Shown piece after piece: positions 9,500-64,000 of a stretch of 64,000 nt of DNA. Position 1 is the first letter of the stretch. Each line of letters opens with the position of its first letter. A model generated the notes under the pieces. It did no database searches. It saw only the letters and a program-made list of their open reading frames with translations, and was not told where the DNA came from. This stretch comes from a virus (lineage: Duplodnaviria; Heunggongvirae; Uroviricota; Caudoviricetes): the IMG/VR virus record IMGVR_UViG_3300043313_000558, one strand, 5' to 3'. Position numbers and translations under genes: made by a program.

Positions 9500-9517
9500 A
9501 GCTGCAAATGCTACTGC

Positions 9518-13488: not shown

Positions 13489-13687
13489 ACTTGTAGCCGT
13501 ACCAGAACGTTGGTGCCCATCCGGCTACCGGGACACCATCGATGAACGCGGTGAGGTTGCCTGCGGAGTCCACTTCCATCTCCTCGGCTTCGACCACGTC
13601 GTAGTCCTCCCTGGTGTTCACCTGCCAGGTCTTCACTTGTTCTTGGTCCCGATGTCCGCACCCACACTCGGGCTCTTCCGGTACCAC
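13445..13687 (-). CDS. acidic 80-aa protein
   Basis: ORF; CGCGH motif near N-terminus. Confidence 0.3.
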   Translation of the reverse strand: MVPEEPECGCGHRDQEQVKTWQVNTREDYDVVEAEEMEVDSAGNLTAFIDGVPVAGWAPTFWYGYKCAEVDDEERQDELS

Positions 13688-13763
13688 TCAGGTGTTGCCA
13701 GGTCATCCTTGCGCTTCGCGCTCTTCGGCTTCTTGGTTTCTTTCTTGGAGTCCTTGCCCTTGC

Positions 13764-14036
13764 TCACTTGCTGACCTCCACCCGGTCCTGGATGCTCAGG
13801 TCCTCCTCGCTGAACAGCGTGGATGCACCGTTGATCATCTCGTTGCTCTCCCGAAGCGCAGGGTGCGCCTGGTAGTAGCTGAGTATCTCTTCCTCGTTGT
13901 GCAGCTCGATCCGGGCTTCACGCAGCTCACGGTCCATCTGATCCACCTTGCCTCGAAGGCGTTCCACCAGCTTGCTCTGCTTATCCAGCTGTTCCTGAGC
14001 TCGCACAGCCATCTCCCGCGTTACTCCCTTGCTCAT
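13764..14036 (-). CDS. coiled-coil 90-aa protein
   Basis: internal start MSKGVTREMAVRAQEQLDKQSKLVERLRGKVDQMDRELREARIEL. Confidence 0.35.
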   Translation of the reverse strand: MSKGVTREMAVRAQEQLDKQSKLVERLRGKVDQMDRELREARIELHNEEEILSYYQAHPALRESNEMINGASTLFSEEDLSIQDRVEVSK

Positions 14037-14177
14037 CTGTTCTCCTCCATGATCCGCACCATCACGACCCGATGACCTTTCTTCTTGGCCTTGGCGGTCA
14101 TCACCTGGTAGCCCATGGACTGGAACTGCCTCCGTGCTGATGCCGCGTTGTTCTCGCTGTAGGTTTCTGCTACCCAC

Positions 14178-14516
14178 TCACCTGGATGTGCCTCCACCAT
14201 CTGCTGGAACTCGTTGATGTTCACGTTCGGTGGTCGTCCCACTCGCTTCGGCTTGTAGTTCGCTCCTAGTACTTCCGGCATCCGTGTTCTCCTCTGGGAT
14301 CTTTGCTTCAAAATCCGCTTGACCTGCTACTTCGTCATTCAGAGCGCTTAGCTTTGCTGCATGAACAGCGACCTGAGCACAGGTCTGGCAGATCGGGAAC
14401 CGCGGAACCTCACCGAGGAGGGTGTACAGCACCTTGGCGGTGGACTTGAAGTTCTCCTTCTTCCACCCGCACAGCGTGGCCGGTCGGTAGTTGTAGCTGG
14501 TCCTACCGCTGCTCAT
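14178..14516 (-). CDS. hypothetical 112-aa protein with CxxC
   Basis: internal start MSSGRTSYNYRPATLCGWKK..FPICQTCAQ of the 14178..14651 ORF. Confidence 0.3.
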   Translation of the reverse strand: MSSGRTSYNYRPATLCGWKKENFKSTAKVLYTLLGEVPRFPICQTCAQVAVHAAKLSALNDEVAGQADFEAKIPEENTDAGSTRSELQAEASGTTTEREHQRVPADGGGTSR

Positions 14517-14821
14517 CACCTGGCCAGAGGACTGGACCCAGATACAGATGTGGGTGACCTTGGTGGTCTGAAGGTAGGCGACGCTCTCCGCCACGGTGCT
14601 CTCTTCCCGGCGGCTTACAGGCCTGCCTCTGCTTGGACGTCGCACCCACACTTGTAGAGCTTGTCACCGAGCTCCCTGGCCAGGATGGGCGTCATGGTCA
14701 GTTCCACCGCATCGATCTTCAAGACGACCTTTCCGCCCTGCTTTTCGATGGTTACTTCCTTACCTTCTCCCTGCGTTCCCACTGAACCTACCTCCTCGGT
14801 GCAAGGGTTGTCAAGCCTGGT

Positions 14822-28674: not shown

Positions 28675-28792
28675 GCGACCATCCTCCACCCGCAGGCGAG
28701 GCACCTGAAAAACGTTTTGGATTTTGACACAAAAATAGGACCAGAAGCCCCCGCCGAAGCGGGGGCATAAAGGTCCAGAAACACGAATATTT

Positions 28793-37396: not shown

Positions 37397-37497
37397 GTGG
37401 TTGGAGCACAGGATCGAGATGTCGGTGTTGCGGCGCACGTTCTGAAGCGCGGTAGTAGACACGGTGCAGTGTCCTTTCTGGTGGTGGGCATGAAAAA

Positions 37498-37543
37498 GCG
37501 GGCGGAGCCGTGTGCGTCTCTCGCAGGACACAGCTCCGCCCGC
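37498..37543 (-). terminator. 11-bp-stem hairpin followed by T5 on the minus strand, directly downstream of a TATAAT box
   Basis: gcgggcggagc / gctccgcccgc; plus-strand gaaaaa at 37492-37497. Confidence 0.5.
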
Positions 37544-37547
37544 TCCT

Positions 37548-37615
37548 TCTATTATAGGGCATTTTTGAGCCTTTTACCAACTATTTGGCCCCTTTTTGCC
37601 CCCTTTTTGCCTCCT
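37548..37615 (-). promoter_or_regulatory. conserved promoter-like element copy 1 (TCAAAAATGCCCTATAATAG on minus strand) with upstream GGCAAAAAGGGG direct repeats
   Basis: plus-strand attata at 37551-37556; second copy with the same core at 55172-55216. Confidence 0.45.
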
Positions 37616-39239: not shown

Positions 39240-39266
39240 TGCGTACGCTCTCCTTTTGAACGTAGA

Positions 39267-39312
39267 AAAGGCCCCCGGTTCACTCATTGGGTTGAGTTGG
39301 CCGGGGGCCTTT
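39267..39312 (-). terminator. intrinsic terminator: 12-bp perfect stem + TTTT on minus strand
   Basis: aaaggcccccgg / ccgggggccttt with 22-nt loop. Confidence 0.55.
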
Positions 39313-39811
39313 CGCGGAGTATCTCTGGAAGGACTTCTCCTCTGCTTCACTCACTAGCTGCTCGGGGAGCCTTTGAGCGAAACGGTTACAAGCGGGTCGG
39401 TGGGCCGCACTCTCGTGGCGACTCACAGGCGGTTATTCCCGCGTTGTGCTTCTATTGTATCACGGTTGTGTCAGACCTTCAAGCAGTCCTTTGATCGACT
39501 CCACGTGGTCCCCGGGAAGGCGGATCTCGTGGGAGGTCATCAGCACCACCGTGATCGGTTCACTGCCTCGTAGTTCGCGCAGGTACACACCCTCGACCTT
39601 CGAGGGGAACACCCACACGTGGTCGAAGATCTCGATCACCTCATACTCCTTATCTCCCGCTCCAGGGCTTCCACCTGGTGCCTCTTGATGTGCTGCCACG
39701 CGGAGGTAACCGCGTCGAGGTGTCGGTAGGCGTAGTCCGCCCAGCTCCCACACAAGCGACACGAGACCCGCCATCGGAAAGGCGGGAACGTGTAGTGCCT
39801 CCGGATCCGGA

Positions 39812-50144: not shown

Positions 50145-50159
50145 GCTGGTGGGGTAGGC

Positions 50160-54804: not shown

Positions 54805-55093
54805 CTCCGGTCTCCTCGGGGTCCGCGTAGAAGACCCCCAGGCAGCCCTGGGGGTGGGTGGTGACCTTGAAGCGCTGGGCGTCCAGGTCGTAGTGGTCGT
54901 AGATCATCGACCAGGTGGTGCCGAACAAGGACCAGGCCTCGGTGCGGGCGTCCTCCTCGTTGTCGGCCACGATGATGACGTACCCGTCTGGGTGCATGCC
55001 CAGGGGGTGTGGGTGGGTGCGGTACTGCACCCCGAAGGTGACGTAGAAGACGTGCTCCCGCGGGGTGGAAGCGGGGATCATCGGCTCTGCCAT
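54794..55093 (-). CDS. hypothetical 99-aa protein; first gene downstream of the promoter/hairpin cassette
   Basis: ORF with gaaaggg RBS. Confidence 0.4.
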   Translation of the reverse strand: MAEPMIPASTPREHVFYVTFGVQYRTHPHPLGMHPDGYVIIVADNEEDARTEAWSLFGTTWSMIYDHYDLDAQRFKVTTHPQGCLGVFYADPEETGDGA

Positions 55094-55124
55094 CGTGCTT
55101 CCCTTTCTGTTTAGGGCAGCAAAA

Positions 55125-55166
55125 AGCGCCCTGCTCCCAGGCCGGGCGTGGCCTGAAAGAGGGCGC
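55125..55166 (-). terminator. compound hairpin + T5 on minus strand, 18 nt downstream of a TATAAT box
   Basis: outer stem gcgccct / agggcgc, imperfect inner stem caggcc / ggcctg; plus-strand aaaaa at 55120-55124. Confidence 0.45.
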
Positions 55167-55171
55167 GAAAA

Positions 55172-55216
55172 CTTGCGTACCCCTATTATAGCAGTTTTTG
55201 ACCCGTTTTTACTACT
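55172..55216 (-). promoter_or_regulatory. conserved promoter-like element copy 2 (GGTCAAAAACTGCTATAATAG, extended -10 TGnTATAAT)
   Basis: plus-strand attata at 55185-55190; the core matches copy 1 at 37548-37600. Confidence 0.45.
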
Positions 55217-63995: not shown

Positions 63996-64000
63996 GTCGG

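Follow-up and report, generated by a model that had tools for sequence, protein, structure and literature searches.

The minus strand of the window, the 64,000-nucleotide stretch of phage DNA analyzed here, carries two closely matched cassettes, sites 1 and 2, in which GG[G/C]TCAAAAA-N4/5-CTATAATAG is followed by a long GC hairpin, a T5 run, a ribosome-binding site (RBS), and a gene start. What looks like a consensus promoter thus stands directly in front of what looks like an intrinsic terminator, and the layout is kept in related phages. Our tentative interpretation, which we hold with somewhat less than even confidence, is that each cassette is a dual-use, promoter-proximal intrinsic terminator that would end the upstream transcription unit, attenuate its own promoter, and remain as a 5' hairpin on the read-through mRNA. 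This suggests that early and middle gene expression is throttled or switched at a stop signal rather than at the promoter.

The window has a GC content of 64%, and all of its genes with a coding signal lie on the minus strand. Read from position 64000 downward, that strand begins with the tape measure protein, which is cut by the window end (1942 aa in full), followed by tail genes, a Gp80-like 121-aa gene, and then site 1. Downstream of site 1 come ~45 small genes, hardly any of which could be assigned to a family and many of which encode Cys-rich, zinc-finger-like proteins; an SPFH gene also lies downstream of this site. A third cassette at 39.4 kb is followed by two genes and then by site 2, downstream of which lie genes for a zinc-finger protein, an AAA ATPase, an HNH protein, DnaB, a Toprim primase, and Pol III alpha; beyond these replication genes are a WhiB-like protein and a small HTH protein and then terminase and portal. 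Site 1 is the end of a late structural operon (~44 kb) and the start of the small early genes, and site 2 is the end of the small early block and the start of the replication genes. A new functional block therefore starts at both sites, as the initial annotation had proposed when it described each cassette as leading into the first gene of a new operon.

Proteins identical to those of the window were found on 82.8- and 83.7-kb contigs from several soil-type metagenomes, and the window therefore represents about three quarters of an ~83-kb phage genome. The part of that genome outside the window holds head and tail genes and no further cassette. Samples in which the phage is present include ERZ27257245, SRR26457777, and JGI 3300067032 and 3300075532. 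A nucleotide search of isolated phages returned no match to the window. The closest Pol III alpha proteins among isolates (~35% identity) come from Gordonia and Brevibacterium phages. Relatives of the gene that directly follows site 1 occur in Arthrobacter, Microbacterium, and Curtobacterium phages. These relationships and the WhiB gene point to an actinobacterial host. No RNA polymerase gene was recognized in the phage, so that the host enzyme is presumably used. Transcription runs in one direction through a genome with many intergenic hairpins. A tRNA scan of the window found nothing, and a PDB sequence search with the first gene after each cassette returned nothing useful. The features of the three cassettes are collected in Table 1.

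Table 1. Predicted features of the three promoter-then-terminator cassettes, listed in the direction of transcription
Feature	Position	Strand	Details
Site 1, stop codon of upstream gene	55219-55217	minus	
P1 upstream region	55191..55216	minus	Phased A-tracts; conserved GGGTCAAAAA at 55204-55195; TG of extended -10 at 55193-55192; GG[GC][TC]CAAAAA kept in six orthologous cassettes
Site 1, TGc of extended -10	55193-55191	minus	
P1 -10 hexamer TATAAT	55185..55190	minus	Invariant in six orthologs, always preceded by TGn
Site 1, discriminator and leader (18 nt)	55167..55184	minus	18-19 nt in six orthologs, four different sequences
T1	55121..55166	minus	Putative intrinsic terminator at end of late structural operon; hairpin 55166-55126, T5 55125-55121; score 29.8
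Site 1, start of 99-aa first gene	55091..55120	minus	Conserved GCTGCCC; RBS GAAAGGGA (~55107-55100); ATG 55093
P3	39454..39482	minus	TTGAAG-17-TGaTACAAT (TGaTACAAT 39462-39454); orthologs in L169 and L173
P3 leader (~145 nt)	39310..39453	minus	Non-coding, no GC3 coding signal until ~39265; conserved structured 5' domain
T3	39266..39309	minus	Terminator-like; hairpin 39309-39270, GGCCCCCGG..CCGGGGGCC followed by TTTT; 14 pairs; score 14.8
Site 2, stop codon of upstream gene	37617-37615	minus	
P2 upstream region	37557..37614	minus	Five A-tracts phased by 10-11 bp, including two GGCAAAAAGGG repeats; TTGGTA 37580-37575; GCTCAAAAA 37570-37562
P2 -10 hexamer TATAAT	37551..37556	minus	Kept in L169 and L173
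T2	37493..37544	minus	Putative intrinsic terminator; hairpin 37544-37497, T5 37497-37493; starts 6 nt after -10; score 31.0
Site 2, start of 92-aa first gene	37460..37492	minus	Conserved CATGCCC; RBS GAAAGGA 37477-37471; GTG 37462; gene called identically in L169

The two near-identical minus-strand elements of the initial annotation, quoted there as a 21-mer and a 22-mer, are exact, and the 20-mer pattern that they share, with up to 3 mismatches allowed, gave 2 matches against 0.05 expected. TATAAT itself occurs only twice in the 128 kb formed by both strands of the window, at sites 1 and 2. TANAAT occurs three times across the two strands together, against an expectation of 10.1 +/- 3.2, and all three occurrences are intergenic and on the coding strand; at all three, a hairpin and U run precede the first ORF. 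The cassette had been reported as present twice: both sites are real, but there is also a third, looser version at 39482-39239 on the minus strand, in which an RBS (AAAGGAGA) and the real start codon, ATG 39239, follow T3. The -35 element and spacer of P3 lie within the upstream ORF, whose TGA stop codon falls inside the P3 extended -10.

The extended -10 that had been assigned to one of the two elements is found at site 1 only. In the site-1 cassettes of the window and five orthologs, TGnTATAAT is always present and there is no good -35, whereas P2 lacks the TG and instead has a -35-like TTGGTA 18 nt from TATAAT (10/12 matches). The presence of TGn at one site and TTGGTA at the other is the usual extended -10/-35 trade-off and so fits real promoters. 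The A-tracts upstream of P1 number three and are phased. The element GG[GC][TC]CAAAAA sits 2-5 nt upstream of the -10 and is kept in all site-1 and site-2 cassettes while the neighboring bases diverge; P3 does not have it. P1, P2, and P3 each combine a near-TATAAT -10 with TGn or with a -35 at 16-18 nt, the sequence pattern of a sigma-70/sigmaA promoter. With their consensus -10 boxes, their extended -10 or -35 elements, the phased A-tracts upstream, and their conservation in relatives, P1 and P2 look like real promoters of the sigma-70/sigmaA type. From the spacing, assuming initiation 7 nt after the -10, the P1 start is predicted to lie near A55178. Two further candidate signals were rejected. 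An antisense promoter was considered because TTGACC occurs in the reverse complement of GGGTCAAAAA, but the hexamer most like a -10, TATGGC from the stop-codon region, is separated from it by no more than 13-14 nt in three phages and is missing from L168. The sequence CAGAAAGG, considered as a repeated start-associated motif, is no more frequent than expected by chance.

The T1 and T2 hairpins greatly exceed shuffled sequences in stability. The T1 hairpin has 17 pairs and one bulge (-32 to -34 kcal/mol; z = -5.4) and that of T2 has 19-22 pairs (-37 to -40 kcal/mol; z = -8.2); none of 200 shuffles reached this stability in either case. This agrees with the strong GC hairpin and T5 run first described after each -10. 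No other hairpin-plus-T-run element on the coding strand is as stable as T1 or T2. The terminator scores in Table 1 combine hairpin energy with the T-tail, using a formula that is reportedly that of d'Aubenton Carafa et al. from 1990; among five other intergenic hairpins scored, those at 50159, 43214, 36570, and 24598 were negative, having no U run, and that at 9517 scored 8.1. A U-rich tail lies at the stem base in all 12 cassettes (six from site 1, three from site 2, and three from site 3), even where it has no A-rich partner, as at T3 and in L130. T1, T2, and T3 thus each show the sequence pattern of a canonical intrinsic terminator, a GC-rich hairpin and a U tract on the transcribed strand. 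If transcription starts 7 nt after the -10, the U run of site 1 would span roughly +54 to +58 and that of site 2 roughly +48 to +52, which agrees with the earlier estimate of a terminator within 25-60 nt. With purified mycobacterial RNA polymerase, even an imperfect U-tract is enough for termination at a hairpin, whereas hairpins that lack a U-tract do not terminate transcription, and NusG helps termination at suboptimal terminators in mycobacteria (PMC3993855).

The pattern of substitutions bears on whether the hairpins act as RNA. Across three phages, 3 of the 24 pairs of T2 show compensatory double changes and 4 show one-sided, G.U-compatible changes, with 0 broken in the core; at T3, 3 of 14 pairs show compensatory double changes. 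In T1, the window and L166 differ at two neighboring pairs, where U.G and U-A are exchanged; of the three hairpin types, two have GC/GC at the foot of the stem and one has AU/UA. (In the MAFFT alignment, the 3' arms of the different hairpin types are offset by one column, and pairing in the six site-1 hairpins was therefore checked by eye.) In 7 of 8 T1/T2 hairpins, the sense RNA folds more stably than the antisense RNA, as would follow if the transcribed strand were the only one on which U.G pairs are tolerated; T1 contains such sense-strand U.G pairs. These compensatory changes and sense-strand G.U pairs indicate, at the level of predicted folds, that the hairpins have been selected as RNA structures. 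A search of the whole window against Rfam gave 0 matches at the gathering score and only chance-level, miRNA-like matches on the T2 hairpin.

Several simpler or competing uses of the hairpins were rejected. A start site inside the hairpin, which would give own transcripts that lack the 5' arm, does not fit stems that begin 6 and 18 nt after the -10, so that the whole stem would be transcribed. Nor did we find a competing antiterminator fold: at full length, the leader folds merely lengthen the terminator helix. Bidirectional termination does not apply, as no plus-strand T run follows the hairpins and there are no plus-strand genes. Finally, abortive transcripts can bring about antitermination at T7 Tphi, but for this they must pair with the terminator's 5' half (PMC2952870); abortive RNAs of the cassettes match the 5' arm and would pair with the 3' half instead.

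Orthologous cassettes were recovered from metagenomes through the flanking proteins. For site 1, the 99-aa protein is 81% identical in L166, 73% in L167, 66% in L129, 62% in L168, and 47% in L130 (the same as L001/L162); L169 and L173, in which the flanking protein is 71% and 35% identical, respectively, yielded site 2 and the third cassette. The distance from the -10 to the stem is 18, 18, 18, 19, 18, and 18 nt in the six site-1 phages, although the leader exists in four versions and the hairpin in three unrelated versions, and it is 6 nt in all three site-2 phages. L132 and L136, which are more distant and carry the same 99-aa first gene, have the ordinary order, with the hairpin and T run followed by TTGACG-18-TAGAAT, a short leader, and the same ACAGAAAGG RBS context, and the 88-kb Gordonia phage ChisanaKitsune has no promoter-then-terminator cassette. 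Judged by this spacing, fixed while the sequences around it have been replaced, and by the ordinary order in distant relatives and the lack of a cassette in the Gordonia phage, the promoter-then-terminator order is a derived, maintained feature of this phage lineage and is not general to such genomes. Motif scans of IMG/VR returned only chance matches in AT-rich phages and one known relative. Separately, in the distant relative L170, hairpins lie flush with promoters and have no U run.

In our preferred reading, the first half of the cassette would be a strong housekeeping-sigma promoter, marked by its consensus -10, its extended -10 or -35, and curved A-tract DNA upstream, and the second half, a long GC hairpin and U run, would act in the coding-strand RNA as a canonical intrinsic terminator. 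The hairpin would then have three roles, all of which follow from the position of the promoter upstream of the terminator. It would end the preceding unit: at site 1 this is the late structural operon of ~44 kb, and at sites 3 and 2 it is the block of small early genes. It would stop part of the polymerases coming from its own promoter, so that the downstream operon would be fed by read-through and the hairpin would be an attenuator and a possible control point. And it would stay on the read-through mRNA as a stem-loop flush with the 5' end or within ~2 nt of it, where it should block decay by RNase E, RNase J, and RppH. The initial annotation had treated operon-end terminators only as an alternative that would refute its proposal; the hairpins do appear to end the preceding operons, but the arrangement suggests both roles at once. 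We infer the promoter activity, start site, termination efficiency, read-through fraction, and stabilizing effect of the cassettes from these sequence features.

Transcripts with a base-paired 5' end are known to be protected from attack by RppH, RNase E, and RNase J. If P2 transcription starts 7 nt after the -10, its RNA would begin at the first paired base of the ~20-bp stem in all three phages. At site 1, the predicted RNA begins with ACGCAAG, of which GCAAG pairs in folding with the U run and GC; four of the six site-1 cassettes share a conserved ACGCAA where the RNA is predicted to begin. On the same assumption, the 5' end is paired or at most 2 nt from the helix in 3/3 cases at site 2 and in 3/6 at site 1 (the window, L167, and L166). 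In L168, L129, and L130, which have site-1 stems of only 11-12 bp, a helix flush with the 5' end is weak or missing. The P3 leader is 95-215 nt long, and the 5'-protection role therefore cannot apply at P3 without processing.

The known 5'-terminal stem-loop stabilizers, such as the E. coli ompA, T7 gene 10, and B. subtilis aprE leaders, resemble the cassettes in that the predicted transcript starts flush with a stable helix, but they have no U run and do not double as terminators. In actinobacteria, the whiB7/wblC leader is a leader-terminator attenuator with the same succession of promoter, leader, intrinsic terminator, and gene, and with expression set by read-through; such leaders use a long leader with a small ORF or a ligand-sensing fold, however, for which sites 1 and 2 have no room. 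TerR of plasmid pLS20, which stands at the end of a very long operon, has a 15-bp stem and is resistant to antitermination (PMC10325885). The likeness lies in the long stem (17 and 19-22 bp here) and in an upstream purine/A segment that pairs with the U run, and the window T1 and T2 combine stems of ~14 bp or more with a U tract at an operon end and may share this resistance. In contrast to the cassettes, TerR has no promoter before it, and the 11-12-bp stems of L168, L129, and L130 fall short of the TerR type.

Of the other explanations, we consider processive antitermination that depends on a factor, like that of lambda Q, AlpA, or N, or on an RNA such as put, to be possible but unlikely. 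According to this explanation, constitutive promoters would make transcripts that almost all end at the hairpin until the polymerase is modified; a phage-made or virion-delivered factor, or the structured P3 leader RNA, would then give read-through of T1, T3, and T2 and of the many downstream hairpins, producing early, middle, and late timing on a one-direction genome. The architecture of promoter, terminator, and operon at all three consensus promoters is in its favor, as are the very strong terminator scores, the placement of all genes on one strand with many intergenic hairpins, and the dozens of early proteins without assignable function, many of them Cys-rich and zinc-finger-like. If T1 to T3 are as efficient as scored, moreover, they would yield mostly RNAs of ~50-190 nt, and the best promoters of the phage would be wasteful unless read-through were raised. 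The Q-binding element of lambda lies in the promoter spacer, and GG[GC][TC]CAAAAA is conserved at that position in the spacers of P1 and P2 and could be a loading site.

The cassettes do resemble lambda pR'-tR'/Q and Pseudomonas AlpA systems, in which a strong promoter is followed by an intrinsic terminator within tens to ~200 nt and then a long operon, and in which only a short RNA is made without help. Against this, a family-level search with Pfam and PHROGs of nearly all ORFs between 54.8 and 10.3 kb, plus the tail genes, found no Q, 21Q/82Q/AlpA-type, N, NusG-paralog, or sigma-like gene, which is how the check for a Q- or N-like antiterminator proposed in the initial annotation turned out. 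Reading the initial transcribed regions directly (18 nt at site 1 and 6 nt at site 2), we found no -10-like, sigma-dependent pause element (TANNNT) in AGGGGTACGCAAGTTTTC or in AGAAGG and the stem. The lambda terminator tR' lies at +194, whereas the cassette terminators start at the transcription start or 11-12 nt after it. The downstream genes are of early or middle type, not the late genes that Q controls, and the hairpin also appears to end the preceding operon. With no phage gene upstream of a terminator, at least one cassette must leak at the start of infection. The lack of a phage gene between any of the three promoters and its terminator implies that some read-through is factor independent, unless the virion delivers a factor. 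Stems of at least 14 bp made the pLS20 terminator resist processive antitermination (PMC10325885).

The likeness to lambda N/nut and HK022 put, which also place a structured RNA right after early promoters of a genome transcribed through many terminators, breaks down at the level of the RNA. The nut and put sites are conserved in sequence between left and right sites and have no U run, whereas the P1 and P2 hairpins share no sequence and look like canonical terminators; the differences among hairpins between sites and among orthologs exclude a shared RNA site. A nut site consists of boxA and a small boxB hairpin recognized by the arginine-rich N protein, in contrast to the 17-22-bp hairpins with U runs and the lack of an N-like match here, and put is a two-stem RNA of ~65 nt without a U run, in contrast to the single terminator hairpins of sites 1 and 2. 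A put-like position is found for the P3 leader (39453-39310) alone, whose conserved multi-helix domain begins directly after the start and whose inner hairpin shows 3 compensatory pairs; this counts in favor of antitermination and makes the structured domain the best candidate for a put-kind, cis-acting RNA. Control of the downstream operons by processive antitermination or attenuation, as first proposed, was thus a reasonable reading of the promoter-terminator order, but membership of the cassettes in the lambda Q/qut, N/nut, or put families is not supported.

Read-through could also depend on where the polymerase started. Sigma is retained in early elongation, and a polymerase from the cassette's own promoter would reach the U run within ~50-58 nt, still tending to hold sigmaA and not yet carrying NusG or NusA, while polymerases from the upstream operon would be sigma free and NusG loaded and would terminate. 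The terminators would then select by origin, with own-promoter polymerases largely reading through. This idea, which we regard as doubtful, builds on the fixed promoter-hairpin spacing, on sigma retention, and on NusG-stimulated termination in mycobacteria (PMC3993855). If it is true, one hairpin would insulate consecutive units, each of which would restart at full strength without a phage-encoded factor, and the new mRNA would receive a protective 5' stem-loop cap.

Three further explanations appear improbable, each to about the same degree. In the first, the cassettes would be genes for short non-coding RNAs of ~57, 50, and 190 nt, each with its own internal promoter, that share the terminator of the upstream operon (3'-UTR type), with the downstream operons using other promoters. 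A small-RNA gene has just such an anatomy, a promoter and a terminator that enclose no ORF, and the fit is closest at P3, where the -35 and spacer lie inside the upstream ORF and the leader structure is conserved, and the retention of ACGCAA in four of the six predicted site-1 RNAs would also fit. However, the bodies of the site-1 and site-2 RNAs are the terminator hairpin alone, the hairpin sequence has been replaced wholesale (three types at site 1), which is unexpected with a sequence-specific target, there is no Rfam family match, and the 13-20 nt between hairpin and RBS contain no alternative promoter.

The second improbable explanation holds that the hairpins are ordinary operon-end terminators and that TATAAT is weak, silent, or incidental AT-rich DNA, the downstream genes being expressed by read-through or from unrecognized promoters. 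Both hairpins do follow directly on the gene that closes a functional block. Promoters of actinobacteria often belong to a loose TANNNT type, and others of this kind probably exist on the phage genome, a candidate being TTGACA-18-TAGGTT at 14808-14779; the downstream operons may then not depend on the cassettes. This explanation has to contend with the conservation of the TGn -10, the A-tract element, and the hairpin spacing in phages with flanking proteins only 47-81% identical, with the absence of TANAAT from the rest of the 128 kb, and with the extended -10/-35 trade-off described above. The third, to which we likewise give little credence, sees the hairpins chiefly as elements that process or stabilize RNA and cause little termination, for example an RNase III site (as in the T7 early region) or a 5' stabilizer, the U run serving only to pair with the purine-rich leader; 17-22-bp stems suffice for RNase III, the leader does pair with the U run, and the L170 hairpins have none, but a U-rich tail kept at the stem base in every cassette in a 64% GC genome, even without an A-rich partner, and terminator scores that are the highest among the hairpins scored argue against it.

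The cassettes therefore come closest to a promoter-proximal terminator/attenuator, a function that we infer from a pattern that is clean and conserved; their nearest textbook counterparts are lambda pR'-tR'/Q, AlpA, and leader attenuators. To our knowledge, and in the literature searched, no antitermination or attenuation system has been described in actinobacteriophages, and we found no description there of consensus promoters flush with canonical terminators; papers on actinobacteriophage expression signals report a few SigA-like promoters and separate terminators. The transcription programs of these phages are poorly understood, with few promoters or terminators mapped. If the cassettes merely reflect tight packing of an operon end against the next operon start, they would be an annotation detail. 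If they are functional, they may be a route to a new antiterminator or a position-dependent terminator and could supply parts for high-GC hosts (a strong promoter, an insulator, and a 5' stabilizer), and they would offer a compact model for how early, middle, and late units are separated on an ~83-kb genome transcribed in one direction.

TANAAT hexamers, which resemble the −10 element, occurred only 3 times on the two strands of the whole window against 10.1 ± 3.2 expected, and the plus strand of the window held none. This depletion suggests that stray −10-like elements are selected against.

The third cassette, a promoter followed by a leader and a hairpin-T4 terminator, was compared in the window and two metagenomic relatives, L169 and L173. 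In all three phages the leader is noncoding, with a length of 95 to 215 nt, and compensatory base changes were found both in its 5′ domain and in the terminal hairpin. The unit matched no Rfam family. For the gene that follows it, the annotatable start is ATG 39239, as opposed to the GTG at 39350 that opens the longest ORF.

Immediately 5′ of the promoter of site 2, the similar cassette ahead of the replication gene block, lie direct repeats of GGCAAAAAGGG, which could be either iteron-like repeats of an origin or curved DNA upstream of the promoter. In the distant relative L170, an inverted repeat, TGTCA(GT)..(AC)TGACA, follows each of two promoter-like sites at a distance of 5 to 6 nt. The two promoters have its sequence in common, and for this reason the repeat could function as an operator and not as an RNA element.

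The HNH endonuclease gene of the window (ATG 29158 to 28793, minus strand) has a hairpin and a T5 run upstream and a TACTAT box of its own 6 nt 5′ of the ATG, a distance at which its transcript looks to be leaderless. On its 3′ side lies a canonical terminator (GCCCCCGC..GCGGGGGC, with T5 at 28735), and an AT-rich GTGTCAAAATCCAAAACGTTTTT segment comes next. An extra HNH_3 gene sits among the head-tail genes, on the strand opposite to them, in L143, one of the near-identical genome copies, and is absent from the others (L144 and the JGI contig). Part of the length difference between contigs of 83.7 kb and 82.8 kb probably stems from this homing endonuclease, which is polymorphic for presence and absence.

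Strong GC hairpins that have no U run stand at many gene junctions on the minus strand of the window. Their terminator scores were negative or low; they may form structures that serve as RNA 3′ ends or in processing, or they may mark sites of weak pausing.

Coordinates of the features described
Feature	Location	Strand
Early block (site 1 to third cassette), many small Cys-rich proteins with CxxC pairs	window 55100-39500	(-)
Third promoter-to-terminator unit	window 39482-39239; L169:3160-3465; L173:1520-1695	(-) in window
GGCAAAAAGGG direct repeats, two and a half copies	window 37613-37581	(-)
Promoter-like sites TGaTAGAAT and TGgTAACAT	L170:10480-10574 and L170:4480-4545	
HNH endonuclease gene region	window 29283-28700; L169:13400-14000	(-) in window
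Extra HNH_3 gene	L143:1230-1631	minus strand of locus
Junction hairpins without U run	window 50159-50076, 49226-49121, 43214-43081, ~41960-41908, 36570-36488, 34459-34319, ~32850-32780, 31699-31620, 30026-29950, 24598-24521, 9517-9461	(-)
WhiB-family gene and small HTH-like protein gene	window 19712-18829	(-)
Collagen-like Gly-X-Y repeat proteins, two predicted	window 18446-17712 and 11576-10317	(-)
Terminase gene	window 16327-14822	(-)

The terminase gene is flanked by the collagen-like proteins, one upstream and the other between terminase and portal. Just downstream of it, the region 13600-14800 contains the GC minimum of the window (0.56 to 0.60), with GC skew and AT skew both strongly negative, and several very small basic ORFs; this region could be a genome end or a packaging region.

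Among the encoded proteins, two Cys-rich products of the early block and a 166-aa protein after site 2 matched the Pfam family Phage_zn_bind_8, a putative DNA-binding zinc finger. The WhiB-family gene (E = 1.5e-19) and its HTH-like neighbor adjoin the collagen-repeat proteins and terminase on their upstream side, and their products are candidate regulators of late transcription.
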